A stretch of DNA of 64,000 nt from contig CAMDDG010000002.1 of NCBI GenBank assembly GCA_945890895.1, positions 40,048-104,047 of the forward strand. Direction: 5' to 3'. The notes beneath the pieces are model-generated. The model was not told the origin of the DNA. It made no database searches and worked only from the letters and a program-made list of their open reading frames with translations. Shown here one piece after another: positions 1,240 to 56,422 of this stretch. How positions within the stretch are numbered: position 1 is the stretch's first letter; the number at the start of each line of letters is the position of its first letter. The stretch comes from Chitinophaga pinensis. GTDB taxonomy: Bacteria; Bacteroidota; Bacteroidia; NS11-12g; UBA955. Made by a program: the position numbers and the translations under genes.

Positions 1240-2196
1240 CTAAAAACCACGATGAAGAATGCGGTCCACTTTTTTTAAATCATTCACAGGTCTAAAGTCT
1301 CCAATTCTCTGTATAAAACTGATACTGGGCAACGGTAAATTAAACTGATTGTTCAACTTTCTAACTTCCCCAAAACGACCTTCTTCCGTGTATTTTCCTC
1401 CCCAATTGGCAAAATACATTACTCCCAACGACCAGCTTTTATTTGGATTTTTATTACTTATCAAACGAAATTGCACATTCGCATAAATAGATTTTCGTCC
1501 AACTACCAAGTTTTTATAATCCAATAAATACGGTGACCCTAGCGGATTGGTTGGGTCTTCTAATATGGGATTATTTTGTTCATCTAATTGCCACTTACTT
1601 ACGTTACTCATGGTTTGATAACCTGGTGAATACCACAATTCACCCAATACGTAAATTGCCGGACTAAGACGTTTACATCCTCCAAGCTGGAACATCATCG
1701 AGGTTGAAGGTAAAAAGTTGGCAGACCAAATCCCCAAAGCTGCTGTTAAATGATCATGAATTCCACCGTAAGTATATCCACCAAAAACCATGTTGGTCGT
1801 TAATGAATTTCCATCACTCAGAAACATGGAATTCGCAAAGATGTCTCCAACAATTAAGCGTTGTTTAGGCGCCACTTCCACAGAATATTGGGGAGCAACA
1901 TAGGCATAAAAAGGAAGAACTACTCCAGCCGCTACGGAGATATTATTGGTAAAACCGTATTGAACATCATTCAAAACACCATTGAAATTTTGATATTGCA
2001 ATGTACGCTTTTCAACTGGGTAACCCGACTGCATGAAAATGTAGCGACCACCAATTAATTTAACCTCTTCAATAATTGGCAAGATAACGGCTTTCCCTTT
2101 TTCGGGGGACAGTGAATCTGCTAGAACAAAATTTCCACGAATAGAAGAAAATAATGTGGTAAAAGTCAAAGTCAGAAGTCCCCAATAAAGTTTCAT
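1240..2196 (-). CDS. Hypothetical secreted or outer-membrane protein
   Basis: 318-aa ORF with an N-terminal signal-like hydrophobic segment (MKLYWGLLTLTFTTLFSS). Aromatic- and Gly-rich alternating pattern and a C-terminal ...HRGF ending. No family recognised. Confidence 0.55.
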   Translation of the reverse strand: MKLYWGLLTLTFTTLFSSIRGNFVLADSLSPEKGKAVILPIIEEVKLIGGRYIFMQSGYPVEKRTLQYQNFNGVLNDVQYGFTNNISVAAGVVLPFYAYVAPQYSVEVAPKQRLIVGDIFANSMFLSDGNSLTTNMVFGGYTYGGIHDHLTAALGIWSANFLPSTSMMFQLGGCKRLSPAIYVLGELWYSPGYQTMSNVSKWQLDEQNNPILEDPTNPLGSPYLLDYKNLVVGRKSIYANVQFRLISNKNPNKSWSLGVMYFANWGGKYTEEGRFGEVRKLNNQFNLPLPSISFIQRIGDFRPVNDLKKVDRILHRGF

Positions 2197-2201
2197 TACT
2201 G

Positions 2202-2209
2202 CAAAGATA
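2202..2209 (-). promoter_or_regulatory. Candidate -7 box TATCTTTG, 5 nt upstream of the ATG at 2196
   Basis: CAAAGATA on the plus strand. Confidence 0.45.
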
Positions 2210-2217
2210 CAACGAAA

Positions 2218-3351
2218 TTAATGTTTGATTTTCCAAGAAATAATTTGGGAATCATCGCTACAGGAAATCAATGTTTCATGATCCAACCAAATAATCTTAT
2301 TAACTGAACTTTTATGAGCTAATTCTTTATGAATCAATATGTCTCCACCATCTACATCCCACAATCGGATACACTTATCCATGCTTCCAGAGGCCAGCAA
2401 TTTTCCGCAGGGAGAAAATGCCAAAGCATGAATACTGAACCAATGTGCATCAATCTGTTTATGGATATTCAAGAATTCATCAGTAATCCAGATTTTAGCA
2501 TCTCGACCTCCCAAAGCACAAATTTTCTGATGTTGAACCATTTGAAACAGTGTGTTTCTCCCTATGGTGTATTCTTTGATACGTTGGAATTCAAAATTAT
2601 CCCAGTTATCGCCTAAAATTTCCCATTCGTACACCAATCCTGATTGTCCACCCACTCTTACTCTGTTGCCCAAATTAAAGTTTGAATTGATGCATCTCAA
2701 ACTGCCTGGAATTGCAATCGATTTTACCAAAAATTTCATTGGATTATTTATATCCCAAAGAGCAAGTTTCCCATCTGCCGAACACGATACGATAATCCTA
2801 CTTTCTTTTGATTGAAATTCTGAATATTCATTAAAATCAAAAACCCCTTTTTCATGGATTCGAAACTCCCACATTTTCTCAAATTTCAATTCTACCGGAA
2901 TTTTCATTTGGGAGCTCAACTCATTACTACTGCCATTGGCTAAATTCACATTATCATCATTAAAATTATCTGATCGTAACTCCTCCGCTGAACGAACATT
3001 TTTATCTATGGAAACATCATTGCCATCCGATGTTTGCAAATCCTGATTACTGTGGTTAAGCCCGCTCTGTAGTACAGGAAAACCCATTTTTCGGAATGCG
3101 TAAACCGTTCCAGATTGACCTCCAGCAAGTATAAATTCACTTTGACTTCCTAAAACACAGAGCGAATAAATGGGCTCACCGGTTTGAGCAATTAATCTAC
3201 CGTGAGATTCAGTACCGCTTGGCCAATGAACAATCCACCCTTCCGATCCAGCAGAAAACCATCCCCCAAGACCATCTAACTGAATATCATAAACAGCTTG
3301 TTTGTGTCCCAAAAAACGATTTTCCAACAAAAGATTTAACTTTGAACTCAT
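2218..3351 (-). CDS. WD40-repeat protein with a low-complexity insertion
   Basis: Repeated WD-like blades: SCSADGKLALWDI, LASGSMDKCIRLWDV, ISCSDDSQIISWKI, GGQSGTVYAF. An Asn/Ser/Asp-rich insert is present (NHSNQDLQTSDGNDVS...NFNDDNVNLANGSSNELSSQ). Confidence 0.8.
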   Translation of the reverse strand: MSSKLNLLLENRFLGHKQAVYDIQLDGLGGWFSAGSEGWIVHWPSGTESHGRLIAQTGEPIYSLCVLGSQSEFILAGGQSGTVYAFRKMGFPVLQSGLNHSNQDLQTSDGNDVSIDKNVRSAEELRSDNFNDDNVNLANGSSNELSSQMKIPVELKFEKMWEFRIHEKGVFDFNEYSEFQSKESRIIVSCSADGKLALWDINNPMKFLVKSIAIPGSLRCINSNFNLGNRVRVGGQSGLVYEWEILGDNWDNFEFQRIKEYTIGRNTLFQMVQHQKICALGGRDAKIWITDEFLNIHKQIDAHWFSIHALAFSPCGKLLASGSMDKCIRLWDVDGGDILIHKELAHKSSVNKIIWLDHETLISCSDDSQIISWKIKH

Positions 3352-4213
3352 GATTTTAATAGATTCTTGGGTTTGCGAAGAAAGTGGCAGCCAACTTTGG
3401 TTTTACAAAACTAACGCATCGTGGTTGGAAAGCGAAACTCAAGAAGAAATTCCTGTTAAAATCAACGGACGCATTCTAGAGCAACGAGCAACTCATTGGA
3501 TTCAACAAGAATTGCACCCAGAAACATACATTCAAAAAAACGAATTTGGGAAACCCGAACTGGTTGCTACAGGAATGGAGTCTTCCCCAGATAAATTACA
3601 ATCCATATTACCTTACATCAATTACAGTCATACGTTATTGTTTCAGAATAACTCCAATTCAAACAAATCAATAAATTCAAATCCCAATATAAATAACCCG
3701 ATTTCAAAGAAAGATTTTGGAAAGGAATGTTGGGTTTTATGGGGTACCCATAAGGAAAAACCCATCGGTGTAGATGTTGAAAGCGTGCGACCACAAATTG
3801 ATAAAATCAAGTCCAAGTTTTGCAGGCCCGAAGAAATGGTATTTGCGAATACTTCAGTGAAGACACTCCTCATTTGGTCAGCAAAAGAAGCCATGTATAA
3901 GGCTTATGGCAAGAAAGAAATTGACTTCAGAGAGCAAATGATGGTACACCCATTTGTTGGGTTTTCTACAGATGATCAACTATTGGATTCAGACAAATTA
4001 CCAGAAAGTACTTCAGAATTATCTGAATCAACTGCATTTTCCCACCACACAACTGACTCTTCAAATTCGACTTCAAGGCAAAATTCCGAATTGCAAACCA
4101 TCCATTTTTCGGGGGAACTATGGGGCGATAGACACTACTACTTTGATCTTTTCGCTCGTTGGTATGAACCCTTTGTTGTAGTTTGGGCCATAGAAAGTAA
4201 ATCAGCCCATTAA
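3350..4213 (+). CDS. 4'-phosphopantetheinyl transferase superfamily protein (Sfp-type)
   Basis: PIGVDVESV and WSAKEAMYKAYGK motifs. ATG at 3350 is preferred over the TTG at 3302. Two low-complexity inserts are present (NSNSNKSINSNPNINN; STSELSESTAFSHHTTDSSNSTS). Confidence 0.7.
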   Translation: MILIDSWVCEESGSQLWFYKTNASWLESETQEEIPVKINGRILEQRATHWIQQELHPETYIQKNEFGKPELVATGMESSPDKLQSILPYINYSHTLLFQNNSNSNKSINSNPNINNPISKKDFGKECWVLWGTHKEKPIGVDVESVRPQIDKIKSKFCRPEEMVFANTSVKTLLIWSAKEAMYKAYGKKEIDFREQMMVHPFVGFSTDDQLLDSDKLPESTSELSESTAFSHHTTDSSNSTSRQNSELQTIHFSGELWGDRHYYFDLFARWYEPFVVVWAIESKSAH

Positions 4214-4251
4214 TTTCGTGTTTTACAACACATTCACCGGCCTAAATTCAC

Positions 4252-4259
4252 TATATTTG
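4252..4259 (+). promoter_or_regulatory. Candidate -7 box TATATTTG, 10 nt upstream of the lepA ATG
   Basis: Exact TAnnTTTG match. Confidence 0.5.
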
Positions 4260-4269
4260 CGGGCTAATT

Positions 4270-6073: not shown

Positions 6074-7255
6074 ATGACACCCAAGGAAGAACTTTTATCA
6101 CTTTTAGTACTAAGTCAATTACCCGGTATTGGACCTATTTTAGGTAAAACATTAATTCGGCATTTTGGATCAGCAAATGCTGCAATTAATGCAAATAAAT
6201 CGTCTTTTTTAGCCAGTCCAGTTTCCAATGAAAAAATTTACAATCACTTAGTCAATCAAAAAGAACAGCTATGGAAAAAGGCAGAAACGGAATGGTTGTT
6301 TTGTCAAAAATACAATATTCAAATACTGAGCTTTTATCAAGAGGAATATCCTATCCGTCTAAAACAACTTGTTGATGCACCGCTCCTATTATTTTTCAAA
6401 GGCAAAACTACATTAAATGCACCTCGGACTTTAGCTATTATTGGAACTCGAAAACCTCGACCCGAAAGTTTAGAGTTAACCCAACAAATTATTCAAGATT
6501 TAAAAAATTTAGGTGTCCAAATCATTAGTGGTTTGGCTTATGGGATCGATATTTCTGCACATCGAAATTCTCTGCAAAATCAACTATCTACCATTGGAGT
6601 TCTCGCTCATGGATTAGATACGATTTACCCTACCAACCACCGACAAACTGCGCAAGAAATGGTGAATCAAAATTCTGGTTTACTCACTGAAATGATTCAC
6701 AGAACCAAATTACACCCGGACTTGTTTCCTAGAAGAAACCGAATAGTTGCTGGATTAAGTGATGCGGTATTGGTGGTTGAAAGTAAAAACACCGGAGGCA
6801 GCATGTCTACAGCTCAAATTGCACGTAGCTACGATCGCGAAGTCTTTGCCATACCCGGAAGTCCGTTTTTCGGATACAATACGGGTACAAATGCTCTAAT
6901 TAAACGCAATGTGGCGCATCTAATTGAATCTGCCGATGACATTATACACTGGATGAAATGGAACCCTGAGAAATCGAGTACAATCGATGCTAAAAATTTA
7001 AATAGTGGGGAAATAAATGGTTTTTTTGATCTAAACAGCGTCCAACATCCCCAGAAAAAACAAAAATCCCTTTTTGAAATTTTGAATCCAGTCGAAGAAG
7101 AGATTTTGAATTTACTTGCCAATCAGGCCAAGCACATTGATGAACTGTTGATATTAAGTCAAATACCGATTCACCAGCTAACGCTTTCATTGTTAGAATT
7201 GGAACTAAAAGGGCTTATAAAAACAATGCCCGGAAAGTATTTTTCCCGGGCATGA
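6074..7255 (+). CDS. dprA: DNA-processing protein DprA (Smf)
   Basis: IIGTRKP..., ISGLAYGIDISAHR, VVESKNTGGSMSTA and a C-terminal winged-helix-like tail. Typical length of about 390 aa. Confidence 0.9.
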   Translation: MTPKEELLSLLVLSQLPGIGPILGKTLIRHFGSANAAINANKSSFLASPVSNEKIYNHLVNQKEQLWKKAETEWLFCQKYNIQILSFYQEEYPIRLKQLVDAPLLLFFKGKTTLNAPRTLAIIGTRKPRPESLELTQQIIQDLKNLGVQIISGLAYGIDISAHRNSLQNQLSTIGVLAHGLDTIYPTNHRQTAQEMVNQNSGLLTEMIHRTKLHPDLFPRRNRIVAGLSDAVLVVESKNTGGSMSTAQIARSYDREVFAIPGSPFFGYNTGTNALIKRNVAHLIESADDIIHWMKWNPEKSSTIDAKNLNSGEINGFFDLNSVQHPQKKQKSLFEILNPVEEEILNLLANQAKHIDELLILSQIPIHQLTLSLLELELKGLIKTMPGKYFSRA

Positions 7256-7338: not shown

Positions 7339-9204
7339 TTATTTTTTCTTCGCTCTTGCTTGACTCACTTTCATGGCTTCTTCCATTTTTTGTTGGAAAG
7401 CCGATTTCTTTACCGGTTTTTTACGAGCTTCTGCAATTTGCTTGTGCAATTTGTCATCATCTACCATTTTACGAATAGCCCATTGTTGACCAAATGTAAT
7501 CATATTACTAACGAAGTAATACCAAGTCAAACCCGATGCGTAATCGTTCAAAACCCCTAAGAAAATTACGGGCATTAAATATCCCATCCACTTCATTTGA
7601 CCCGTAACTCCAGAAATTTGATTGTTCAAATGGGTATAAATCAAGGTAGAAGCCGTCATTAACAAGGTAAAGAAACTCACGTGATCTCCGTAAAAAGGAA
7701 TATTAAATCCTAAATACGGACCGTCCCACTGTGATAAATCGTGTGACCATAAAAACGTTTTTTGTCTGAGTTCAAAAGCATGTGGGAAAAACTGGAACAT
7801 GGCAAACAAAATAGGCAATTGCAATAACATTGGAACACAACCACTCAAGGGACTCACTCCTGCTTTTTTATACAACGCCATATTTTCTGCTTGCACTTTT
7901 TGCAAATCGTTGTTGTGTTTTTCTTTAATTGCGTCCATTTCGGGCTTCAAAATTCTCATTTTAGCTGTTGAAATGTACGATTTGTAAACCAATGGCAATA
8001 ACATGGTTTTTATGATGATGGTTAACAACATTATCATAATTCCCGCATTTCCGATTAAACCTTGAAGGAAGGTAAAAATGGGTAATACCAAACCTCTGTT
8101 TACCCAACCAAAAATACCCCAACCCATAGGAATGATGCGTTCAACCGAAGCTTCTTGAATACCAAAATCTACATTCTCTAATGTATTGTATTGATTGGGA
8201 CCGAAATAAAATTCAAAATCCAACTTTCGATTCGGCTCACCATTGTAAGCAGAGAATAATTGAATACCTACCGGTTTAACATCCACTGAATCCGAGGGTT
8301 TGTTCAATCCCATATTTAACTTAGCATCGGTTAAAATATCGCTTGGACTGGAAATAATACTTGAGAAATACTGCTGCTTAAACGCCACCCACTGTACCTT
8401 GTTTTTCAATACTTCGGAGGCTTCTTCAGTAGAAGTTAACGTAGTTAGTGATTCATCAGGCAGTTTGTACACAATTGCAGCATTTTGCGTTTCCCATTTC
8501 ATGTCGCGCTCTTGCTTTTGAAGAGTGGCATTCCAATTGAATTTAAAATCAGAATTTCCGCGTCGAACAAATCGCTCCATGCCCACAATATCCAATTTAT
8601 AATCAACCTGGTATGGTTTCTTAGGATCTAAAGTGTATGATTGTTGAATGTAAGAAGAATCATTTATTTTCAACTGAAGTTTTACCGAAGAATTGGTTTT
8701 AGCCGCTACTTCCCAAACAAATTGATCGCTGCTAAGTGGATTCCCATTTTCATCATTCCATTGCCAAACCATTTTGTTTTTCTGAGCATCAAGAAGGATA
8801 AGGTCGGATGAATCTGAACGCTTGAATTCTTTCAATTTCACTTGAGAAATTGTTCCACCCATTTTTGCAACAGTAATGGACAATTGGTTGTTCTCAATTA
8901 CAATGTCTTTAAACTTTTCGGGGGATGCAACCACCATTTCACGAGTTGGTTGTTGAAATGCTGTATTGTTGTTGTTTGCGGTTGCTAAACTAGAATCCGA
9001 TGAATTTCCGGTAGAATCCGATGAATTCATTTTTGCAGATTCACTTTTCTTAAGATTTTCAGCATTGATTTGCTCCACTTTAGCCAGAGAATCTTGAGTT
9101 CTTTGCAACTGTGCTGCTTGTTCGGGGGTCGGAGCTGTATACCAGTAATACCCGGCAAGAATTAAAAAGATTAATGAAAATCCAATTATTGTATTACGAT
9201 CCAT
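7339..9204 (-). CDS. yidC: Membrane protein insertase YidC
   Basis: MDRNTIIGFSLIFLIL N-terminus, a large periplasmic domain and the C-terminal 60-kDa insertase core (PLSGCVPMLLQLPILFAMF). ATG at 9204 is preferred over the track TTG at 9216. Confidence 0.93.
   Translation of the reverse strand: MDRNTIIGFSLIFLILAGYYWYTAPTPEQAAQLQRTQDSLAKVEQINAENLKKSESAKMNSSDSTGNSSDSSLATANNNNTAFQQPTREMVVASPEKFKDIVIENNQLSITVAKMGGTISQVKLKEFKRSDSSDLILLDAQKNKMVWQWNDENGNPLSSDQFVWEVAAKTNSSVKLQLKINDSSYIQQSYTLDPKKPYQVDYKLDIVGMERFVRRGNSDFKFNWNATLQKQERDMKWETQNAAIVYKLPDESLTTLTSTEEASEVLKNKVQWVAFKQQYFSSIISSPSDILTDAKLNMGLNKPSDSVDVKPVGIQLFSAYNGEPNRKLDFEFYFGPNQYNTLENVDFGIQEASVERIIPMGWGIFGWVNRGLVLPIFTFLQGLIGNAGIMIMLLTIIIKTMLLPLVYKSYISTAKMRILKPEMDAIKEKHNNDLQKVQAENMALYKKAGVSPLSGCVPMLLQLPILFAMFQFFPHAFELRQKTFLWSHDLSQWDGPYLGFNIPFYGDHVSFFTLLMTASTLIYTHLNNQISGVTGQMKWMGYLMPVIFLGVLNDYASGLTWYYFVSNMITFGQQWAIRKMVDDDKLHKQIAEARKKPVKKSAFQQKMEEAMKVSQARAKKK
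8915..8927 (+). repeat. Copy of the over-represented 13-mer TTTTCGGGGGATG (inside yidC, antisense to the gene)
   Basis: Exact match. It encodes ASPEK on the gene strand. Confidence 0.85.
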
Positions 9205-9213
9205 GATTTGGTG

Positions 9214-9221
9214 CAAAGGTA
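9214..9221 (-). promoter_or_regulatory. Candidate -7 box TACCTTTG, 9 nt upstream of the yidC ATG (9204)
   Basis: CAAAGGTA on the plus strand. Confidence 0.45.
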
Positions 9222-9444
9222 CAATAATTTCACCCTTTTCAAATAGACTAAAGTTATTTGCAGTTGCTCATGTATTCCAAATCAGGAATAATGCATTTCT
9301 AACGGTGATATACTCGTGGGAAATGATTTCTCCAATGTGCAATAAGTCATACAATCCATCACAAAAGTTGATAATTTTCAATAAGGAGTTTTACAAAGTA
9401 TTTGCAAATTCCAAAACTTGTTGTTTTTAAATTGTAAAAAATAG

Positions 9445-18835: not shown

Positions 18836-19159
18836 AGATATACCTTTCGTATTAAGTTTTTCTTTGAGACGCAATAAACAAAAAAGGTTGCAATTCTTTT
18901 TAATAAGTCTTTAAAAAAATATTAACCGCAAAATCAACAAATGCGCTTAAAAACCTGTTTATCAAACACTTAATACACAAAGGCGTTTTTAATTTACATT
19001 GACATGACATATAGAATCAATTTTTTTCGCCACTCAGCGAAGCGAATTCGCAGTTCATCGAATTGTCTATTTAACATCAAATGCAAAAAAATGAAATGAA
19101 TCCCATTCAAAAAAAGGATCCACCACAATCAGAATAAAAGAATTTACTCCCGAAAAATT

Positions 19160-27223: not shown

Positions 27224-28600
27224 ATGAAAAAGACGTTAAAACTCGGAAAATATATAGCAATTCTTTTGGGATTCGGTATCTTGGGTACTTCCTGTGAAAA
27301 AATGATTGAAACTCCCCCACCCAATGAAATATTGGTAAAGGATGCTATTAAAAATACCCAAGACCTTCAAATGTTGCTAAATGGAAGTTACAATGAAGTT
27401 GCCAATACATTCGGCGGATTCTACCAAACCATGGCGGAATTGATGTCGGATAATTTAGCACTTCCGAATAACAATGATTACAGGGAAATTTACAATCACA
27501 ATGTATTGTTTTTTAACACTACGAGTGGATCATTCTATTCTCAATTGTATCGTGCCATTTTCCGTGCAAACTTTGTACAGGAACACATGGCAGATGCTAA
27601 AGACCTTACGGCAGAAGATTCAAAAAGAATCATGGGCGAGGTGGCCTTCATAAGAGCACTTTGCCATTTTACTGCGGTAAGGATGTATGCGCAACCTTGG
27701 GGCTATACGGCTGATAATTCACACGATGGAATCGCCGTAGTTCGTTCTGTAGTAACCATACCGCAAAAAAGAGAATCCGTTGCAGTAGCTTATGCGGCTA
27801 TAGAAGAGGATTTAAATACAGCCATTGCAAACTTACCGGAAACAAACAACGGTTATGCCACTAAGTGGGCGGCAAAAGCTTTAATGGCTCAGGTAGCCTT
27901 TCAAAAAGGCGATTACACTGTGGCGTCTAAAGAATCAAACGATGTAATTTCTTCGGGTGTATTTACGCTATCTGATACCGTAAATGTATTTACTACGGCT
28001 GCTGTTTCTGAACACATCTACTCCATAATTTCTTATGGTGTAAATGATCAAAGAAGTGGTTCCTATACCAGCAATTTTGCTTCGGGAGTACCAGCTTGTC
28101 AGATGGACAAAGCATTATATGCATCCCTCGAAAATAAAACAACAGACAAACGATTGATGATGTTAACCGTTGTAAATAAAGGTGCACAAAATGAATTTAT
28201 TCGAACCAACATGTTTAATCAACCCTACTTTGATGTTCCTGTGTTGCACTTAAAGCAAATGATGTTAATTCGTGCTGAATCGAACGCAATTTTAGGTACT
28301 GATTACGCGCTTGCGATTGCGGATGTGAATTCCATCATCAATAAATCCTACACCACACCCGTAGTTCTTGATGCCAATGCTACTCCTGCAGAAATTATTG
28401 CACGTATTCGCAACGAGCGAAGAGTAGAATTGATGTTCCAAGGCGATAGAATTCACGAAGTGAAACGTCTAGGCGCTATTGAAAAAGAACGCATGTTTAT
28501 TCGTGGACATGAATGGAATTGCAAGGGAATGCTAATGCAGTTCCCAATTACTGAAAAAACTGATATATTTAACATTAACCCAACAGGAGGATGTGACTAA
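27224..28600 (+). CDS. SusD/RagB-family nutrient-binding outer membrane lipoprotein
   Basis: Lipoprotein signal (LGTSC). Lies immediately downstream of SusC. TPR-like helical pattern (RALCHFTAVRMYAQPWG; ERRVELMFQGDRIHEVKR). Confidence 0.85.
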   Translation: MKKTLKLGKYIAILLGFGILGTSCEKMIETPPPNEILVKDAIKNTQDLQMLLNGSYNEVANTFGGFYQTMAELMSDNLALPNNNDYREIYNHNVLFFNTTSGSFYSQLYRAIFRANFVQEHMADAKDLTAEDSKRIMGEVAFIRALCHFTAVRMYAQPWGYTADNSHDGIAVVRSVVTIPQKRESVAVAYAAIEEDLNTAIANLPETNNGYATKWAAKALMAQVAFQKGDYTVASKESNDVISSGVFTLSDTVNVFTTAAVSEHIYSIISYGVNDQRSGSYTSNFASGVPACQMDKALYASLENKTTDKRLMMLTVVNKGAQNEFIRTNMFNQPYFDVPVLHLKQMMLIRAESNAILGTDYALAIADVNSIINKSYTTPVVLDANATPAEIIARIRNERRVELMFQGDRIHEVKRLGAIEKERMFIRGHEWNCKGMLMQFPITEKTDIFNINPTGGCD

Positions 28601-31435: not shown

Positions 31436-31448
31436 TTTTCGGGGGATG
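31436..31448 (+). repeat. Copy of the 13-mer TTTTCGGGGGATG (intergenic, 13 nt from the lysA ATG)
   Basis: Exact match in non-coding DNA between lysA and the secDF terminator. Confidence 0.85.
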
Positions 31449-31508: not shown

Positions 31509-31538
31509 AAAAAAAAAGCGGGGTTTTTATACCCCGCT
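31509..31538 (-). terminator. Rho-independent terminator after secDF
   Basis: AGCGGGGT (31517-31524) pairs with ACCCCGCT (31531-31538). The A-run at 31509-31516 gives a U-tail on the minus strand. Confidence 0.75.
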
Positions 31539-37418: not shown

Positions 37419-38552
37419 TTAATCCACCAAATCAGAAATTTTCTGAGCAACCAATGCGCTTAAAGCGACACCCATGCCGCCCATTCGAACTCCTAAATAT
37501 AAATTCTCAGCACGTTGTTCAATAATAGGTAAACGGCTATTAGACATACCCATAATACCCGCCCATTGATGATCAATTTCCACTTTTGCATACGGCGCAA
37601 TGATTTCCGTTATCCATTGGGTCAAAGACGCAACCAATTTGTCGTTCGAAATGGATTCTGTGGTTTCTTCCTCTTTAAATGCCAAATTTCTGGCTCCACC
37701 AATTAAAATCCGTGAACCCAATGAACGGAAGTAGATGTAACCTTTATCAGCATGAAAAATTCCCCTAAATGTTAACTCTGGAATGGGTTTTGTAACTAAA
37801 ACTTGCCCTCTAGCTGGCAAGACTTCTTCGTTTTCTAATAGCCATCGAGTATACCCATTGGTGCATATCACCAATTTTTGTGCTTCAATTTCAAAATGGT
37901 TGGTATTGTGTCCCCCGCTGGTACACGTTAATTTCCATTTTTTTGAGGGAAGATGTTCTAGTTGTCCAACTTGAATACCGCTAAACAATTCAACTCCCGA
38001 TGAAACAGCATGTTTTCTCACAGTTTCATACAATAAATGCGATTGAATTGCACCTTCCAACGGTGAATAAATGGCATGAGAATGAATTTTCATACCTAAT
38101 TTAGTCAGGTCTTTTAATTTAAATGCTGGAGTATCATGAAATTGAAGGAGTCCACGATTTAAATCATCGATTTTATTAGCAACTACTTCGAAATCATTTG
38201 CATTTGTAAATATTTCATTTCCTCCAGAATTTTCGTAACCAATTACAGTTTGACCGTATTTCTGAATCAGTTTCGTTAGACCTTGATAGCGCATTCCATA
38301 TAGAGAAAGTGCATTATCTAAACCCATTCGTTCGGCATCATCCAGGATTTCACCCGCCGATCCGAAGCAAGCAAATCCCGCATTTCGAACTGAAGCGGCA
38401 TCCCCCAAAACAGAAGATTCTAAAACCCAAATCTTCCGATGTGGAAATTTATTTTTCAGTTCTGTGGCAGTTTGCAATCCCACCAATCCACCACCAACTA
38501 CAACGATATCGGCTTTATCTAACCAGCGTTGTTCCCAGAAACTTAAAGCCAT
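37419..38552 (-). CDS. FAD-dependent oxidoreductase (DAO family)
   Basis: N-terminal Rossmann motif DIVVVGGGLVGLQTA. About 377 aa. C-terminal GMGGMGVAL. Confidence 0.8.
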   Translation of the reverse strand: MALSFWEQRWLDKADIVVVGGGLVGLQTATELKNKFPHRKIWVLESSVLGDAASVRNAGFACFGSAGEILDDAERMGLDNALSLYGMRYQGLTKLIQKYGQTVIGYENSGGNEIFTNANDFEVVANKIDDLNRGLLQFHDTPAFKLKDLTKLGMKIHSHAIYSPLEGAIQSHLLYETVRKHAVSSGVELFSGIQVGQLEHLPSKKWKLTCTSGGHNTNHFEIEAQKLVICTNGYTRWLLENEEVLPARGQVLVTKPIPELTFRGIFHADKGYIYFRSLGSRILIGGARNLAFKEEETTESISNDKLVASLTQWITEIIAPYAKVEIDHQWAGIMGMSNSRLPIIEQRAENLYLGVRMGGMGVALSALVAQKISDLVD

Positions 38553-40864: not shown

Positions 40865-40869
40865 CGATA

Positions 40870-40877
40870 CAAATTTA
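40870..40877 (-). promoter_or_regulatory. Candidate -7 box TAAATTTG, 5 nt upstream of the purL ATG
   Basis: CAAATTTA on the plus strand. Confidence 0.45.
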
Positions 40878-40952
40878 GTATCAAAGCATAGGAAAAACCT
40901 AACAACTTATCTACTAAATTCGATTGTGGTAGGGGAAATACGATTTTTAATA

Positions 40953-40965
40953 TTTTCGGGGGATG
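40953..40965 (+). repeat. Copy of the 13-mer TTTTCGGGGGATG (intergenic, upstream of purL)
   Basis: Exact match in non-coding DNA. Confidence 0.85.
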
Positions 40966-41081: not shown

Positions 41082-43208
41082 TTACTTCAAAATCATTACC
41101 GCACCTTTTATCGTTTGGCGGCGAATACGATCGCCCACTTTTTGTTCGTACCGATAAATAAATGGATAATTTCCTTCCATGCAAGGTTGTCCATTGGCAT
41201 CTCCATACCAACGATACTCTCCACTACGTTCAGAATCGAAAATAATTTCACCCCAACGATTGAAAATTTGCAATAACACTGGCTGAATATCGCGCCCTTG
41301 AATTTCAAAGTACTCATTTCTATCGTCGCCATTAGGAGTAAATGCAGTTGGAATAAATACATCACAGAATCCATCCGATACTTTAACTTCCATGAAATCA
41401 GTTGCCGATCCACAAGAGTTGGTCACTGCAACGGAATACACACCCGGAGATGAAACATATATTTGTGTGTCATTACTACCTGTGCTCCATGTTATAGTTG
41501 CATTTGGCCATGTCTGTTTTAGCACAATTAACGACCCTTTGCAAATTAAGGTATCACCCGGCAAAGATGCTTGTGGTGTTAATTGGTAACCCACATTCAC
41601 CGTATCTCTCCATTTACAACCATTATTATCTACTTCAGCCCAATAGGTTCCGGCTGAAAATATGGGTCGGGGATTTACAGATGAAGCATTTTCCCACAAT
41701 ATAGTTCCAGCTGAAGTAACGAATAAAGCCAATGGTTCATTATCACAAACTACGGTGTCTTTACCCAGCGTAAATCGAGGCAATGTGTTGATTTGCAATG
41801 AAGATATCACAGAATCCGGACAGAATGTATCCCGGATTACGTATTTAATATTGTGAGTTCCTGCTTTTCCCGGGGTATAAATGTTTCCATTAAACGTACC
41901 TTCGGTTGCAAAAAATAGTCCTTTATTGCTGGTAGGAGTTAAAGTAATGGGTGCACCGTTTTCACAAGTAAACGTTGGTAAACCGCTAAAGGATGCATCC
42001 ACATTGGGTTTAACATGAATCATGATGGTATCACGACTTTTACATCCTTCTGGACTTTCTGCTTCGTGAATAATTGGGAATGCTCCCACGCTTCCATAGG
42101 TATGAGTAATACTCTTATTGGTGCTTGTGGTACCATCCCCCAAATTCCAATAAAAACGTGATAGTCCGGGAAAGGTATTATCGAAAACAAATGAATTTCC
42201 ACTCTGACATTGTATCGAATCGTTAATTGTAATTCCACTTGAAGGATTGGGAATTACACGAATCCACAAAGAGGCTGTATCAGTACAACCGGTTGGGAAA
42301 TTATCGAAATAGGTCTCACTCTTGTACTTTATTTGAATGGTTCCTCCTTGGGTGAATTTCTTCACAGGTTTTGGTATGGTTGAAGAATCCGTTGCACTAA
42401 AGTACCAAGTTCGTGTATACGCCATTTTGGGCAAATTCTTCAGTGAAGTGTTATCTGCAAAAAAGAATTGATTTCCCTCTAAACATTGGGCTAAATTATT
42501 ATTCAACTCAATGGGCTTACTTACAGGACGAGGGATGATTTTTACTGCAAACGAATTGGTATATAAATCCGTACATCCATAACTTGGAGAGGCAACCAAT
42601 GTTACTTGATAATTACCTCCTTCTGCATAAGTGTGTTTTACCGATTTTGTACCTGTATCTTGTTTTCCATCTTGAAAAATCCAGGTGTATGAAACACCCG
42701 AAAAAGTAGATGATGACTTATTGTTGAACGTAACTACATTGGTTCGTGAACAGCTGTCGTTAATGGTAAAATCAAAATCTAAAACTAAATTTTGAGTTTT
42801 AAATGAAAAACTTGCATAAGAAGACGTTAAAAAGTCAGGACTTGCCGCACCGTCGTGTTCAAAAATGGCAACATGATAGGTTGTATTGGGCTTCAACCCT
42901 CTGAGTATAAAGTTATTGGTAAAATTATTAAAACATGCGTAGTTACCCGTACCTACTTGTTGACCCGATTTAAACGTATTGAACGCGGTATAATTGGTAC
43001 CATCGGAAGGGGTAGCGTCTACGGCACTACCTTCTTTAACTAACACGAAACGCCAAGATCCGTTACCATTTGTCCAGGAAATGCTTGCTTGATTACACGT
43101 AATGCCTGTAGCCTTAGCATTAGAAGGTGCTACAGTAGGTTCAGCTGCAAAAAGTTGTTGTATTCCCAAAGCAACAAACCAGATCATAACAAGGGCATTT
43201 TTCAGCAT
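41082..43208 (-). CDS. Surface protein with a T9SS type B (gliding-motility-associated) C-terminal sorting domain
   Basis: Signal peptide, an Fn3-like N-terminal domain and PKD-like repeats (WIFQDGK...HTYAEGGNYQVTL; WNLGDGTTS...HTYGSVGAF). The C-terminus IPTAFTPNGDDRNEYFEIQG...IFNRWGEIIF...WYGDANG...GNYPFIYRY matches the type B CTD pattern. Confidence 0.85.
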   Translation of the reverse strand: MLKNALVMIWFVALGIQQLFAAEPTVAPSNAKATGITCNQASISWTNGNGSWRFVLVKEGSAVDATPSDGTNYTAFNTFKSGQQVGTGNYACFNNFTNNFILRGLKPNTTYHVAIFEHDGAASPDFLTSSYASFSFKTQNLVLDFDFTINDSCSRTNVVTFNNKSSSTFSGVSYTWIFQDGKQDTGTKSVKHTYAEGGNYQVTLVASPSYGCTDLYTNSFAVKIIPRPVSKPIELNNNLAQCLEGNQFFFADNTSLKNLPKMAYTRTWYFSATDSSTIPKPVKKFTQGGTIQIKYKSETYFDNFPTGCTDTASLWIRVIPNPSSGITINDSIQCQSGNSFVFDNTFPGLSRFYWNLGDGTTSTNKSITHTYGSVGAFPIIHEAESPEGCKSRDTIMIHVKPNVDASFSGLPTFTCENGAPITLTPTSNKGLFFATEGTFNGNIYTPGKAGTHNIKYVIRDTFCPDSVISSLQINTLPRFTLGKDTVVCDNEPLALFVTSAGTILWENASSVNPRPIFSAGTYWAEVDNNGCKWRDTVNVGYQLTPQASLPGDTLICKGSLIVLKQTWPNATITWSTGSNDTQIYVSSPGVYSVAVTNSCGSATDFMEVKVSDGFCDVFIPTAFTPNGDDRNEYFEIQGRDIQPVLLQIFNRWGEIIFDSERSGEYRWYGDANGQPCMEGNYPFIYRYEQKVGDRIRRQTIKGAVMILK

Positions 43209-46240: not shown

Positions 46241-46927
46241 ATGCACCCATTTAACCGGATTTCCATTTTACGCATTGCATTCTTATTTTGGGGGATGCAA
46301 GTAATCTCGGGTATTTCACAAAATCAAGCGAGTTCAATATCGCTTGCACGTTTAAAATATCAAGGCGGCGGAGACTGGTACAGCAGTAAAACTGCACTGA
46401 AAAATCTGGCTCTATTCTGCAATCAAAATTTAAAAACATCCCTTAAGACACAAGAATCCATTGTAGAAGTAGGGTCTGATGAATTGTTTCAATTCCCATT
46501 TGTCTTTATGACAGGTCACGGAAACGTAGTATTCACCGACGATGAAGCTGCAAATTTGAGGACCTACTTATTGAGTGGCGGATTTCTTCATATCTGCGAC
46601 AACTATGGAATGGATGTATTCGTGCGCCGTGAAATGAAAAAAGTTTTTCCGGAATTGGATTTCAAGCCCGTACCCTTTTCACATCCCGTATACCATCAAA
46701 AGTATGATTTCAATAGCGGTGTGCCCAAAATTCACGAACATGAAGGCAAACCCGCTGAAGGTCTTGGATTGTTTTGGAAGGGAAAATTAATTTGCTTTTA
46801 CGATTATGAATCCGATTTAGGTAACGGTTGGGAAGATCCAGAGCTTTATAATGACCCCGAGTATAAAAGAAAATTGGCACTCCAAATGGGTGCCAATTTA
46901 ATCAGTTTTGCCTTATTGGGCCAATAA
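46241..46927 (+). CDS. DUF4159-domain protein
   Basis: LARLKYQGGGDWYSS and PFVFMTGHG motifs, typical of DUF4159. Confidence 0.7.
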   Translation: MHPFNRISILRIAFLFWGMQVISGISQNQASSISLARLKYQGGGDWYSSKTALKNLALFCNQNLKTSLKTQESIVEVGSDELFQFPFVFMTGHGNVVFTDDEAANLRTYLLSGGFLHICDNYGMDVFVRREMKKVFPELDFKPVPFSHPVYHQKYDFNSGVPKIHEHEGKPAEGLGLFWKGKLICFYDYESDLGNGWEDPELYNDPEYKRKLALQMGANLISFALLGQ

Positions 46928-52722: not shown

Positions 52723-54975
52723 TCACATTCCGCTTTGTCCGTTTTCTTGTTTTAGGTCTTCGTTTTTAATTTTTAATTCACGCGGATTCTTCATTTCAGA
52801 TTCTACCTTGCCGAATTTATAATCAAAATTCACTCGAACACCCCAAACGTTAAGGTTTCGATCTTGATTAAAGGTAAATCCATTTCCTACATTTTTCGTT
52901 TTCAAATTGATAACTGGAGTAAATGGATTATCTAAACCAAAACCCAATCCCCACTTATCTTTATTGTAACGGCGTTTAATCCCAATGGTGTGAAACAACC
53001 AGTTCTGAGTGTATCCCTGAAGTGAAAAAGTTGGAGCATTAACACGACCAAATGCTTCGATTGCCCATTTTTCGTTGATGTTATAATTGGCCCTCAATCC
53101 CATACTGTACATCCACCCCTTTGCAGAAACATCTTTAACCGCACCTGTATCAACCGTACTTGAAATTTCTACATAGCTTAACCCACCATTCAAAAACACA
53201 CCCCAATCTTTACCTTTAATATTCATATTTAAATCGAATCCATTGTTGCGATTTTTACCAATATTTCCATAAGTCGTTACATATACACGATTCTCATTTA
53301 CGGTTCTATATGTCTCAATAGCATTATCTACACGTTTATGAAAAAAGTTTATACCGAATCCTCCTACTTTGGTGTAATTACCGAAAGATAATTCAAAATT
53401 ATCACCAATCTCCGGCTCCAAATACGGATTTCCTTGTTGAATGTTCAAAGGATCACTCAAATTTGTATACGGATTTAAATAAAACAAACTGGGTCTTTGA
53501 ATTCTTCGATTGTAATTGAAGCGTACAAATCCAGCCATACCAAACTTCCGAGATATTAAAAAAGATGGCACTAAATTGGCATAAGGCTGTCCGTTAAATT
53601 TAGTATTATCCGGCTTGGTCAATGCCCCTCCAAACTCGGTAAACTCATACCGCGCTCCAACACGAACTGAATAATACTTTAAAAAATTATACCCCAATTG
53701 AGTATAAACAGCGTAAACGTTTTGATAATATCTGAATTCATTATTACGCGCTTCAATTGCACGGTAATCTTGATCACCATAATTAAAGCTATCAAAGGTG
53801 TAATCGGAAGTAACCAAACGACCGATAAACTTAGCGCCTGACTCCCAAGTTGTATTCGCATTCAAAGGTTCTATCCAATCCATTTGCAATGAATTTTCAA
53901 TATTTATACCCAAATTGTGACTGCGTTCTTTCCAGAATGAAACGCTCGAATTATTCAAACGATCCGCCCAGTAATCATCCAAAGAATTTCCTTGAGTACT
54001 TAATCCAGAAACTGAAAATTCCCTACCTTTCTTTTTTGATTGATATCGGTAATCAAAACCTACATCATATCCATATCCATTATTCCATCTATCCGTTTTC
54101 TGCGACCAAAGAAAAGCGAGTGAACTATCTATTGGACCGAGTTTCGTATTCCAATTATTATAGGAATTTCTCAATCTACCGTTACCAGAAACCGTAAAGA
54201 TCAACGATTGTCGATCGCTAATTTGATAGTCTAAGCCAACCGTTAATCGTGGTCCCCCACCCCAATTGGTTTGATCACTCACTTGGAGCATTCTAAACGT
54301 TTCCCCAGAAGCATCTGTATTGATCCGTTCGGTAATTTCATCTCCCCAACTTCTCCAAAAATGACTTCCCAAATTAACGGAAACATTCGTTTTCCCTTTT
54401 TGATAGGAGTATTGTCCACCCAAATGTGCAGAACGTGTACCCAACCCCATGCGAACATTCCCTGTACTCCCTTGTAATTTTTTATTTTTCGTGATGATAT
54501 TAATAATACCACCTGAACCTTCTGCATCGTATTTACTTGAAGGATTGGTAATTACCTCAATTTTTTCAATATCATCTGCCGATAATGAACGCAACGCATC
54601 GGCTGGATTACCAGTAAGTAATCCCGAAGGTCTGCCATTCACTAAAAACCGAACATTTCGATTGCCCCGCATACTTACATTTCCATCCATATCCACTTCC
54701 ACCATAGGCACCTTGGAAAGTAAATCGCTGGCGGAAGCACCTTTGCTGGTAACATCTTCTGCGGCGTTATACACCAATTTATCTGCTTGATTTTCAATCA
54801 AATTCTTTTGAACACGAATTTCAACAGCTTCAATTTTTTCAGATGAATCCAATTTTTTTCTTTCGGGGGATGTTGAATCTGCCGCATTTTTAGTCTGTCC
54901 AAATGCCGATAAAGAACTCATCAAACCTAAAAACACAAAAACTCGTATATTTCTATTTGGCACAATTATATTCAT
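52723..54975 (-). CDS. TonB-dependent receptor / outer membrane beta-barrel family protein
   Basis: Signal peptide. Plug motifs (LLSKVPMVEVDMDGNVSMRGN, VRFLVNGRP, IEKIEVITNPSSKYDAEGSGGIINIITK). A long beta-barrel. C-terminal ...VRVNFDYKFG. Confidence 0.85.
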   Translation of the reverse strand: MNIIVPNRNIRVFVFLGLMSSLSAFGQTKNAADSTSPERKKLDSSEKIEAVEIRVQKNLIENQADKLVYNAAEDVTSKGASASDLLSKVPMVEVDMDGNVSMRGNRNVRFLVNGRPSGLLTGNPADALRSLSADDIEKIEVITNPSSKYDAEGSGGIINIITKNKKLQGSTGNVRMGLGTRSAHLGGQYSYQKGKTNVSVNLGSHFWRSWGDEITERINTDASGETFRMLQVSDQTNWGGGPRLTVGLDYQISDRQSLIFTVSGNGRLRNSYNNWNTKLGPIDSSLAFLWSQKTDRWNNGYGYDVGFDYRYQSKKKGREFSVSGLSTQGNSLDDYWADRLNNSSVSFWKERSHNLGINIENSLQMDWIEPLNANTTWESGAKFIGRLVTSDYTFDSFNYGDQDYRAIEARNNEFRYYQNVYAVYTQLGYNFLKYYSVRVGARYEFTEFGGALTKPDNTKFNGQPYANLVPSFLISRKFGMAGFVRFNYNRRIQRPSLFYLNPYTNLSDPLNIQQGNPYLEPEIGDNFELSFGNYTKVGGFGINFFHKRVDNAIETYRTVNENRVYVTTYGNIGKNRNNGFDLNMNIKGKDWGVFLNGGLSYVEISSTVDTGAVKDVSAKGWMYSMGLRANYNINEKWAIEAFGRVNAPTFSLQGYTQNWLFHTIGIKRRYNKDKWGLGFGLDNPFTPVINLKTKNVGNGFTFNQDRNLNVWGVRVNFDYKFGKVESEMKNPRELKIKNEDLKQENGQSGM
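54861..54872 (+). repeat. Copy of the 12-mer core TTTCGGGGGATG (inside the TonB-dependent receptor gene, antisense)
   Basis: Exact 12-mer, preceded by C rather than T. It encodes TSPER on the gene strand. Confidence 0.85.
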
Positions 54976-55153
54976 TACTTTTATTCTATTTATTTTTTAC
55001 ACTATTCTAACTGCCTCAAATCAATTATAACTGAGGGTAATATATACTTTTCTTATCCTATTTTTTTGTTTGATTCACAGTAGATATTTTTAACTCAACG
55101 GTAATTACTCAAAAGCTCTCTCTATTATTTTTGTTACAACACCTATATTTTTG

Positions 55154-56422
55154 TTAAACACTTCTCATAGCCTCTACAGGACTCATCTTCGCTGCGGACT
55201 GAGCGGGTAAAAATCCAGCTAATAATCCCACAACAAATGATGTAATTACTCCCATATAAATATCTTCAAGTCCTAAACTTAATTCTACACCATTACCCAT
55301 AGATTGTTTTGCAAAAACATCCAAAACCAATAATAAAAGCCAAACAAAAATCAATCCTATACCGCCTCCAGCAATAGAAAGCCAAACTGATTCGAGTAAA
55401 AACTGCGTCCTTATAAACCAGTTTTTAGCCCCTAAACTCTTTTGAATTCCTATTTCCCTGGTTCGCTCTTTTACCGAAACGAACATTATGTTAGCAACAC
55501 CAAAACTACCAACCAACATCGCAAAACCACCAATAACAATACCTATTTTTTGAATCTGACCAAACATACCGGAAATTGCATCCGTAATCATGGTCATTTG
55601 ATTCACTGAAAAGTTATTCTCTTGGTTGGGCTTAAGTTTTCTAAACTGCCTCATCAATCGATTCACTTCAATTTTCAAATCGTCTAATTTTGCACCTTTA
55701 GCCGATTTTACCATAATTTGAACTTCGTTAGAATACCGATAAGGCATAATATTTAAAGCCCATTTGGACGGAATAAAAACAGCATCATCCACCGAACTTC
55801 CCATCATATTACTGCCTTGATATTCACAAATACCCACAACAGTAGCTACAAAACTACCAATTCGTACTTGTTTACCTAAAGCAGTTGAACCGGGGAATAG
55901 ATTTCGTGCAACATCATTTCCCAAAATCACTACAGCCCTTCCCGCAGAACTCTCATCCCCCGAAAAATACCTTCCCTCAGCAACAGGAACATCTTGAACT
56001 TGATTGTAATCGTGTGAAATGCTTCGAATATTGGCTGATTTAACTGCTTCTTTACCTGCTGAGATGTCGCGATTAAAATTGTAAGTGAACGCAATGGAAG
56101 AAACCAAAGTTGGATCCAATCTTCTACTCAAGAATTCTGCTTCTTCCGGTGAAGATTCAGGACGTTTCAAAAAATTCCACCACGGATAATTCTCCCCAAA
56201 ATCGTCCCACGACCATTTTTGCACAAACAATACATCCGAACCATACTTAGAGAACTGGTTATTCAAGCTCTTTTCTAACGAATGCACCAACGCATACACT
56301 GAAACCACGCAAAATATACCAATAGTTATGCCCAAAACAGACAACGCACTTCTCAGTTTATTATTGACTAATGCCATAAAAGACATTTTCAACGCTTCGC
56401 CGTATACAGGAAAAATGCGCAT
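55154..56422 (-). CDS. ABC transporter permease (MacB/FtsX family)
   Basis: MacB-like periplasmic domain plus a C-terminal FtsX domain (VSVKERTREIGIQKSLGAKN). ATG at 56422 is preferred over the TTG at 56446 because a TAAATTTG -7 box lies at 56428-56435. Confidence 0.85.
   Translation of the reverse strand: MRIFPVYGEALKMSFMALVNNKLRSALSVLGITIGIFCVVSVYALVHSLEKSLNNQFSKYGSDVLFVQKWSWDDFGENYPWWNFLKRPESSPEEAEFLSRRLDPTLVSSIAFTYNFNRDISAGKEAVKSANIRSISHDYNQVQDVPVAEGRYFSGDESSAGRAVVILGNDVARNLFPGSTALGKQVRIGSFVATVVGICEYQGSNMMGSSVDDAVFIPSKWALNIMPYRYSNEVQIMVKSAKGAKLDDLKIEVNRLMRQFRKLKPNQENNFSVNQMTMITDAISGMFGQIQKIGIVIGGFAMLVGSFGVANIMFVSVKERTREIGIQKSLGAKNWFIRTQFLLESVWLSIAGGGIGLIFVWLLLLVLDVFAKQSMGNGVELSLGLEDIYMGVITSFVVGLLAGFLPAQSAAKMSPVEAMRSV
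55954..55966 (-). repeat. Copy of the 13-mer TTTTCGGGGGATG (inside the ABC permease gene, sense)
   Basis: CATCCCCCGAAAA on the plus strand. It encodes FSGD on the gene strand. Confidence 0.85.

Follow-up and report, generated by a model that had tools for sequence, protein, structure and literature searches.

The stretch of DNA analysed here (64 kb), referred to as the window, carries in and between its genes a 12-letter DNA word, TTT(C/T)GGGGGATG, which is about 100 times commoner in one small lake group of uncultured Bacteroidota than in related genomes. A count of TTTTCGGGGGATG in the window gave six exact 13-mers, all of the C-type, and one 12-mer, and every copy reported in a preliminary description was found. 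One exact copy (8915..8927, plus strand) lies antisense in yidC, 282 nt from the start codon, and is read as ASPEK in a variable periplasmic linker; it is missing at the orthologous site of the compared sequences L119 and L120. Two further copies share an LptD-family gene, which matches PF19838 (LptD_2). The copy at 20163..20175 (plus) is in the sense strand, 307 nt from the start, and is read as FSGD, and that at 22301..22313 (minus) is antisense and read as IPRK at relative position 0.85, being among the few sites that lie far from a gene start. FSGD is also the reading of the copy at 55954..55966 (minus), which is in the sense strand of a MacB/FtsX-type ABC permease gene, 463 nt from its start. 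The 12-mer core, CTTTCGGGGGATG, lies antisense in a TonB-dependent receptor gene (54860..54872, plus; 108 nt from the start) and is read as TSPER. Translation at the sites thus returned the peptides that had been claimed. The remaining two exact copies are intergenic, as had also been described. The first (31436..31448, plus) follows the secDF terminator hairpin and precedes the probable lysA start codon, an ATG at 31423, by 12 nt; it is kept in L202 amid indels. The clear terminator hairpin found upstream of lysA does not contain the word. The second (40953..40965, plus) precedes the purL ATG by 88 nt and the TAnnTTTG -7 box of this gene by about 75 nt, and is conserved in L199 and L201.

T-type copies with T in place of C were found at three loci. 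The 12-mer TTTTGGGGGATG (38399..38410, minus) is in the sense strand of a DAO-family oxidoreductase gene, where it is read as VLGDA, 148 nt from the start. Every letter of this word is the same in 5 genomes and the word is absent in outgroups; flank identity to the window is 72-82% in three species and 98.75% in the same-species contig L199. An 11-mer, (A)TTTGGGGGATG, falls on the conserved peptide NLGDG in the middle of a T9SS cargo gene (42134..42144, minus). Another T-type 12-mer (46286..46297, plus) is in the sense strand of a DUF4159 gene and is read as FWGM, 51 nt from the start; it sits in the poorly conserved N-terminus of that gene. Among the near-copies, TTTTTCGGGGGAC (2098..2110, plus) lies 92 nt from the start of the gene at 1240-2196 on the minus strand, and its L119 orthologue reads TTTTTCGGGGGATAG. 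The near-copy (C)TTGGGGGATGG (3257..3268, minus) lies 84 nt from the start of a WD40 gene, and L119 has TTTTGGGGGATGG at this site. About 160 nt upstream of lepA the window has TTTTTCGGGGGAA (4105..4117, plus). A full word also precedes lepA in each of L119, L120 and the second species studied (S2), placed and oriented differently. Four near-copies (2098, 4105, 38399 and 46286) had been listed before, and those at 42134 and 3267 are added here. One-mismatch copies were present inside dprA (TTTTCTGGGGATG, 7046..7058, minus) and inside a SusD-like gene (TTTTCGAGGGATG, 28122..28134, minus). The gene dprA, to which the preliminary description had drawn attention, is indeed present at 6074. Of the uptake machinery expected in hosts of USS- or DUS-type words (ComEC/Rec2, ComEA, ComF, a pilus or pseudopilus, DprA), dprA was the one gene seen; it is nearly universal and says little by itself.

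It had been estimated that far fewer than one copy should occur by chance, and the background models agree. The order-3 Markov expectation for the window was 0.007 for the 12-mer, which was observed 7 times, and 0.002 for the 13-mer, which was observed 6 times. The word and its sub-words ranked first in enrichment in the window at every k from 8 to 13. Within one mismatch of TTTTCGGGGGATG there were 9 matches in the window, compared with 0.15 expected from dinucleotide shuffles, and none of 100 shuffles reached this number. The count in relatives that had been proposed as a check was also made, using 2.17 Mb from relatives outside the clade with similar GC content. The 12-mer TTTYGGGGGATG occurred 9 times in the 64 kb window and 3 times in these 2.17 Mb, giving a roughly 100-fold excess. 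This empirical control agrees with the model-based expectations. USS and DUS, the self-recognition uptake words of Pasteurellaceae such as Haemophilus and of Neisseriaceae such as Neisseria, exceed composition-based expectation tens- to thousands-fold and so reach such ratios, whereas known transcription-factor or Chi sites do not. The suggestion that the word forces rare codons was correct for GGG (10% of Gly) and TCG (12% of Ser), which are minor codons, but not for CCC, which makes up 24% of Pro codons and is not rare.

The basic unit consists of TTTYGGGGGATG preceded by a T-rich flank. This word lacks palindromic symmetry and a second half-site, and no extended repeat surrounds it. A sequence logo of the aligned word sites showed conservation confined to about 14 nt. 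The earlier statement that an extended flanking consensus is missing was accurate, except that a weak T-rich 5' flank is present beyond the 13-mer. Searching the literature for this word gave nothing beyond unrelated primer or eukaryotic matches, and a comparison of the 14-mer pattern with viral contigs gave, among the matches listed, single chance matches only. Many dispersed copies of a word that contains GGATG, a FokI-type core, could be remnants or targets of a mobile element (MITE, REP or IS end) or sites of a GGATG-centred restriction-modification or methylation system. However, the conserved flank is limited to the T-rich stretch, the logo and flank analysis found no hairpin or palindrome at the copies, and an Rfam search of the window returned zero matches. 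Moreover, the copies stand in frame within conserved genes without insertions. GGATG occurs 132 times in the window against 105-146 expected and is neither enriched nor avoided, which leaves the proposed type IIS or methylation role without support; restriction sites are usually avoided rather than enriched. We consider a mobile-element or GGATG-centred origin highly improbable.

By walking along contigs, we obtained 69.7 kb from S2 and 39.6 kb from a third species for comparison. There were 10 sites in the 64 kb of the window, 17 in the S2 sequence and 12 in that of the third species. Among the genomes compared, the word was found in a single well-supported clade, made up of freshwater Bacteroidota MAGs. 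In a YidC tree the word-bearing genomes formed a single clade (support 100/99) with a sister clade that lacks the word, and the word was absent from relatives with a PurL identity of ≤86%. Site density was 1.6-2.4 per 10 kb in the clade and 0.07 per 10 kb in relatives, where the 16 loose matches in 2.17 Mb were mostly single conserved peptide sites. The variable fourth letter differs between species: the window has 7 C and 3 T, the basal species S2 has 16 T and 1 C, and the third species is mixed. A strong plus-strand G5 asymmetry in some PurL-neighbour loci was considered as another dialect; it turned out to be an ordinary coding-strand G bias and did not involve a shared word. Public records currently give MAGs of this clade wrong labels, Rhizobium and Chitinophaga among them.

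In alignable orthologous DNA, near-words were found to become words by 1-2 substitutions, as in the change from TTTTGCAGATG in the outgroup to TTTTGGGGGATG. These alignments show that the sites originate by point substitution in homologous genes and not by insertion. Words are retained across species, and some stay letter-perfect where the flanks share only 74-82% identity. Between species, word columns were 88% identical compared with 76% for the flanks, and the retention includes synonymous positions. Coding copies use at least four combinations of frame and strand and encode several peptides. About one quarter of the sites lie in non-coding DNA, which itself makes up about 10-12% of the sequence; intergenic sites are enriched roughly 2-fold, as for USS. 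In yidC the word was gained twice, at different places in the variable linker (ASPEK in the window, ESPKI in S2). The frames, strands, missing flank consensus, substitution origin and synonymous retention support the view that the pattern reflects selection or drive at the DNA level, as opposed to a peptide in common or pieces of some longer repeat. On this analysis, TTTYGGGGGATG with its T-rich 5' flank is best explained as a signal that would be read on double-stranded DNA and that has been accumulated and maintained in a genus-level clade.

The words could alternatively be by-products of sequence-biased repair or mutation, with an enzyme converting near-words to the word and no signalling role. 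HIP1 of cyanobacteria and the footprints of very-short-patch repair are thought to arise through biased repair or mutation. Like the word described here, the HIP1 palindrome GCGATCGC is hyper-abundant, occurs in and between genes and is conserved across species, and its function is unsettled; it is, however, a palindromic 8-mer and much denser, while the present word is asymmetric, 12 nt long and located near gene starts. The origin of words from near-words through point substitution fits such a process, as do the enrichment of one-mismatch variants (about 6 in the window, where about 0.5 were expected) and the clade specificity, which would be expected from dependence on one enzyme. A transcription-associated process could in principle also favour gene starts. 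Nevertheless, no known repair bias yields a 12-bp asymmetric word at 100- to 1000-fold excess, GGATG itself is unskewed and an associated enzyme was not found. Letter-perfect synonymous retention is equally expected under drive or selection. A repair by-product is regarded as improbable.

Sites were split 6 plus to 4 minus in the window, where the GC skew at 4-fold sites is steady (-0.116), and 6 plus to 11 minus in S2. With respect to gene direction, the G-rich form was in the sense strand at about 11 sites and the C-rich form at about 14. Orientation thus appears balanced relative to both DNA strand and gene direction, and these small numbers fit an absence of bias. A single close inverted pair of words was noted, separated by 79 nt within an S2 gene, and the sequences examined showed no DUS-type inverted-repeat terminator pairs. 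These data bear on the idea of a polar signal on one chromosome strand, either Chi-like (AddAB/RecBCD) or a KOPS-like guide for FtsK. Chi (GCTGGTGG and the AddAB variants) and KOPS (GGGNAGGG) resemble the word in being G-rich and over-represented, are read by DNA-processing machines, and the 6:11 split in S2 could fit a moderate skew. Known Chi and KOPS signals have 5-8 nt, are strongly co-oriented with replication and exceed expectation just a few-fold, whereas the word has 12-13 nt and no clear polarity. Its excess is at least 100-fold and surpasses that of Chi by orders of magnitude, and neither signal predicts clustering at gene starts. The 6:4 split in a window of steady skew is incompatible with the skew of at least 85% seen for KOPS, although a weaker, Chi-level skew would still fit these counts. 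The Chi-like reading raised in the preliminary description is weak in view of word length, excess and orientation, and a polar signal of either type appears very unlikely.

Analysis of site positions demonstrated clustering near gene starts, which is a new result. The preliminary description had recognised neither this clustering nor the confinement to one small clade nor the lineage-dependent choice of C or T in TTTYGGGGGATG. With the three species pooled, 31 of the 39 sites were within about -250 to +500 nt of a gene start, compared with 18.1 expected (P about 1.5e-5). The median distance to the gene start was +215 nt in the window against 723 for all positions (P = 0.012) and +90 in S2 against 422 (P = 0.0003); for the third species alone, 8 of 12 sites were in range (P = 0.11). 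The bias was not found for control sub-words. We considered weak constraint on N-terminal protein segments as a cause. Amino-acid identity was 0.67-0.72 over the first 300 residues and 0.77 beyond, and since conservation is nearly flat along genes, N-terminal tolerance is not the explanation of the clustering. The clustering points towards a function linked to gene starts and counts against a plain uptake reading.

The main rival to the uptake reading is accordingly a candidate binding site of a clade-specific DNA-binding protein near gene starts, which might be a global regulator, a nucleoid-architecture factor or a machinery loader. Selection would then keep approximately one site per few genes, near promoters and in either orientation. 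Such a role is favoured by the gene-start clustering, which is seen in the window and in S2 when each is tested alone, and by the nearly flat protein constraint. It is also favoured by the retention of intergenic copies amid indels, and by three lineages keeping a word upstream of lepA although positions and orientations differ. Both yidC and a gene of 158-178 aa carry the word in the 5' part in two lineages each, and this would again fit a binding site; however, co-occurrence of words in the same gene of two lineages was not significant overall (odds ratio 2.2, P = 0.30). Genes with words had longer upstream spacers (median 130 vs 63 nt, P = 0.013), a comparison that is biased because intergenic sites need spacers, and a test for promoter-like upstream context (operon-first genes) of word-bearing genes was not significant (P = 0.15). 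About three quarters of the sites lie in coding sequence, as far in as +500 nt, and such placement is uncommon among regulators. The distance to the TAnnTTTG -7 box ranges from 5 to 130 nt with free orientation, and the motif is asymmetric and has no second half-site. Furthermore, hundreds of letter-perfect copies of more than 20 bits far exceed what binding needs and are typical of a copying or drive process. Taken together, we regard a protein-binding site as rather unlikely, though clearly more plausible than a repair by-product.

Our best reading, which we hold tentatively and at somewhat less than even confidence, is an uptake-sequence-like word spread via biased DNA uptake and recombination. 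Among the three mechanisms proposed in the preliminary description, an uptake signal remains the best analogue. A DNA-uptake or DNA-processing component would prefer fragments that carry the word, as is the case behind USS in Pasteurellaceae and DUS in Neisseriaceae. Word-creating point mutations would consequently be over-transmitted by transformation and recombination, and words would build up wherever they are tolerated. The preference for C or T at position 4 would drift between lineages in the manner of a dialect. This scheme supposes that these bacteria are competent and that their uptake is biased by sequence, and it would take the gene-start clustering to mark where words are tolerated, with no second function.

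The closest parallel is the USS of Pasteurellaceae (AAGTGCGGT or ACAAGCGGT core with AT-rich flanks), which is likewise short and asymmetric, borders on AT-rich DNA and hugely exceeds expectation. Both occur on both strands and in several coding frames, are enriched between genes and are clade-specific with subtypes one letter apart. Variable protein segments are occupied in both cases, and the USS of Pasteurellaceae is also somewhat biased to gene termini (PMC2346458, PMC2817400). The present word differs in belonging to another phylum, in its unrelated sequence with a G5 core and in a much stronger gene-start bias that holds in both orientations; competence and an uptake bias would be predictions here. 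To our knowledge, this gene-start bias exceeds any reported for USS. The DUS of Neisseriaceae (AT-GCCGTCTGAA and its dialects), which is bound by the minor pilin ComP, shares with the word a length of 12 nt, dialects between lineages (here C/T at position 4) and orthologous sites that are conserved between species, but DUS forms inverted-repeat terminator pairs, which were not seen for the word. Density is also lower here. Classical USS and DUS occur about once per 1-2 kb, and the word, with one site per 4-7 kb, is several-fold below this (about 3-6 times below USS). Candidate G-run words of Saprospiraceae, such as TACTGAGGGG, differ from the TTTYGGGGGATG word in both sequence and lineage.

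From this analysis, TTTYGGGGGATG may be a self-recognition tag for DNA exchange outside the Proteobacteria that has undergone a dialect shift from T to C, or else the site of a new protein that marks several hundred genes per genome at their 5' ends; we put this forward as a proposal that is quite possibly, though not probably, correct. The word provides a sharp taxonomic marker for binning this clade. We know of only two families, both proteobacterial, in which sequence-specific DNA uptake has been established. Within the Bacteroidota, Riemerella columbina has been reported to prefer its own DNA in transformation competition, and an uptake sequence was not found there (PMC7965970). If the uptake reading is true, a defined Bacteroidota word would turn this own-DNA preference into a testable hypothesis and would offer a tool for tracing barriers to gene flow in abundant uncultured lake bacteria. 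The gene-start clustering matches no known class of genomic word (USS/DUS, Chi, KOPS, HIP1 or REP), and whichever explanation is right, something new on how genome-wide words are written and read is likely to emerge.

A sequence search of the window located six exact copies of TTTTCGGGGGATG, four in plus orientation (8915, 20163, 31436 and 40953) and two in minus orientation (22301 and 55954), its 12-mer core at 54860 and one-mismatch copies at 7046 and 28122, which showed the coordinates of exact copies in the preliminary description to be right. With up to one mismatch, 9 matches were found against 0.15 expected from dinucleotide shuffles. An excess over a k-mer background had also been proposed, and was borne out by an order-3 Markov model of the window (12-mer: 7 seen, 0.007 expected). 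At each length from k = 8 to 13, the word and its sub-words were the most enriched strings of this 37.5% GC window, whose host is a member of the Bacteroidota according to its T9SS type B sorting domains, SusC/SusD and PorP/SprF. The analysis covered the window together with DNA retrieved for its relatives.

Among all listed G5 runs, the word occurs as either TTTCGGGGGATG or TTTTGGGGGATG. The pattern TT[CT]GGGGGAT matches at ten window sites. Eight of these are genic and use at least four frame/strand combinations (FSGD, VLGDA, FWGM, ASPEK/TSPER, IPRK); the other two lie in intergenic DNA, one upstream of lysA and one upstream of purL. The codons forced by the word had been described as apparently rare; window codon usage agrees for GGG and TCG, which are minor, but not for CCC. 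Three very long genes of 1219-1487 aa (14786-18874, 48490-52149 and 56513-60976), two of which were shown to encode T9SS cargo, have no copy, an absence that is statistically not meaningful with ten window sites. Elsewhere in the window, a PolX-like gene with HHH_8, HHH_5 and PHP domains (35663-37351) adjoins a family 9 glycosyltransferase.

A logo was built from 47 non-identical copies of the clade described below, in which G5, A and T were set by the search pattern and hence carry no independent information. A T-rich stretch begins at about -10 and is followed by three nearly fixed T; the Y position (position 4) is C in 17 copies and T in 30, and G follows G5-A-T in 79%. These copies showed no palindrome, second half-site or hairpin, and no other conservation within 40 nt on either side. 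The word is therefore no piece of some longer repeat, in agreement with the earlier impression from the window. Two window copies (2104-2125 and 54865-54885) share an extra TGAATCTGC (TTTCGGGGGA-N3/4-TGAATCTGC), which could be chance or the trace of a longer common context. A mobile-repeat origin, for which the window offers no Rfam matches, is very unlikely. So is a restriction-modification origin: the word contains the type IIS core GGATG, earlier considered as a possible methylation site, but GGATG itself occurs at the expected frequency.

The distribution of the word was surveyed in a YidC-based scan with one genome per species, which yielded 80 loci, all from freshwater Bacteroidota MAGs. 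Only L119, L120 and L121 carried it. In the YidC tree the word-bearers form one clade (support 100/99), and the word is missing from the sister clade (L123-L127). Scanning of metagenome contigs with PurL added L199, the same species as the window (96.7% nucleotide identity), and the close relatives L200-L202 (PurL identity 95-96%), all with the word; none was found there in relatives with PurL identity ≤86%. Outside the clade, 2.17 Mb of similar GC held 16 loose matches (0.07 per 10 kb), mostly at one conserved CDFGGFN-type peptide site, and only 3 full 12-mers versus 9 in the window, a model-free excess of about 100-fold. Sequencing runs containing the window sequence were lake and freshwater metagenomes. 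Organism names on public MAG records were plainly wrong for L119, L120, L121, L123, L124, L138, L171 and others, with Bacteroidota MAGs labelled uncultured Rhizobium sp., Chitinophaga pinensis, Chryseobacterium gleum, Sphingobacterium thalpophilum or Vulcanococcus limneticus.

Two comparison sequences were assembled by walking along contigs: S2 (69.7 kb, from the L121 organism) and a third species (30.8 kb from the L119 contig together with 8.9 kb of a nearly identical one). S2 has 17 sites, 16 T-type and one C-type, the third species has 12, about half of each type, and the window has seven C-type and three T-type sites. Given the basal position of S2, T may be the ancestral form, and C usage may have expanded towards the lineage of the window. 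Within each genome the two forms occur side by side and are stably inherited, so that position 4 is more aptly called degenerate, with a preference that shifts, than a clean switch between dialects. A single close inverted pair was seen (S2, ENA contig k141_1110729, 52879-52968; L121 16709-16798), with its copies 79 nt apart inside a WD40-repeat gene. In L289 (2322-2360), the first 52 nt of a HAD-hydrolase gene include a C-type and a T-type copy in the same orientation, separated by 21 nt. The S2 organism also encodes a RES toxin/Xre-MbcA-ParS antitoxin pair (L284 1-837; L285 10001-10951).

Orthologous alignments demonstrated that words arise via point substitutions in alignable DNA, not by insertion: outgroups have CGCTTTTGCAGATGC where five clade genomes have CTGTTTTGGGGGATGC, and GATTTGGGTGACGG where clade members have AATTTGGGGGATGG. 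That the word is a by-product of repair or mutation bias is improbable. At site 38399 every letter is the same in five genomes, including four synonymous positions, while flanks in the three other species share only 72-82% identity with the window. Other species retain the intergenic lysA and purL copies amid indels, and over all alignable pairs, which are not independent, identity between genomes was 88% in word columns versus 76% in flanks. Turnover was also observed: the yidC copy is missing in the two closest species, and in S2 the variable linker of yidC has a copy of its own at another position (ESPKI versus ASPEK in the window). This linker past the first membrane helix (8950-9060) is of low complexity, rich in Ser, Asn and Asp and different in each relative, and the window copy lies at its edge.

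The window lies probably inside one replichore, since its 4-fold-site skew is steady and negative (-0.116). Six of the window sites have the G-rich form on the plus strand and four on the minus strand; the corresponding ratio in S2 is 6:11, and relative to gene direction G-rich and C-rich forms are about equal. These counts reject KOPS-type polarity and lend no support to the Chi-like signal proposed earlier, although they are too small to argue against a moderate skew; we regard a Chi or KOPS function as highly improbable.

Sites cluster near gene starts. Measured from the start codon (negative, upstream), the median was +215 nt in the window versus 723 for all positions (Mann-Whitney P = 0.012) and +90 versus 422 in S2 (P = 0.0003). 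The range -250 to +500 held 8/10 sites in the window, 15/17 in S2 and 8/12 in the third species (binomial P = 0.11), pooled 31/39 versus 18.1 expected (P ~1.5e-5); this range was picked after the data were seen, and the rank tests are independent of it. The control strings GGGG, TTTTYG, GGATG and TTTYGG, each a piece of the word, had no gene-start bias. Protein constraint was rejected as the cause, amino acid identity to relatives being 0.67-0.72 in the first 300 residues versus 0.77 beyond, and individual sites lie in poorly as well as well conserved segments. The distance from intergenic copies to the Bacteroidota -7 box (TAnnTTTG) downstream of them varies between 5 and 130 nt, which excludes a core promoter element. 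Genes with words have somewhat longer upstream spacers in a biased test, and a promoter-context test was not significant. The lepA upstream region, yidC, a 158-178 aa gene and a 303-318 aa gene of unknown function have words in two lineages each, a recurrence that is suggestive, not significant (P = 0.30). Canonical -7 boxes before purL, lepA and yidC (40864-40890, 4250-4270 and 9204-9230) end only 4-8 nt before the annotated ATG, which implies putatively leaderless or near-leaderless transcripts. Downstream of secDF, and a short way upstream of the lysA word, lies a strong intrinsic-terminator-like hairpin, AAAAGCGGGG-TATAAAAA-CCCCGCTTTTTTTTT (31490-31530), which contains no word itself.

Less probable is that the word acts near gene starts as a site bound by a clade-specific protein; the letter-perfect copies hold much more information than binding requires. 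We tentatively favor an uptake-type sequence, which would have accumulated through biased uptake and recombination, as in the uptake signal sequence (USS) of Pasteurellaceae and the DNA uptake sequence (DUS) of Neisseriaceae. Taken together, the large excess, letter-perfect copies, an apparently free orientation, use of several frames, emergence through substitution, confinement to one clade in which variants shift, and placement in variable protein segments form the signature of these systems. Against this reading, density is several-fold below classical USS/DUS, DUS-like terminator pairs are absent, and the gene-start clustering exceeds anything described for USS. Two precedents are relevant: in Pasteurellaceae, USS has a modest bias towards gene termini (PMC2346458), and Riemerella columbina, also of the Bacteroidota, is reported to prefer its own DNA in transformation, with no uptake sequence identified (PMC7965970). 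In the literature searched, neither the word nor an uptake sequence in Bacteroidota was mentioned. New here are the clade delimitation, the empirical control with its 100-fold excess, the C/T usage gradient, the evidence for a substitution origin and for cross-species retention, and the gene-start clustering, for which any final explanation must account.
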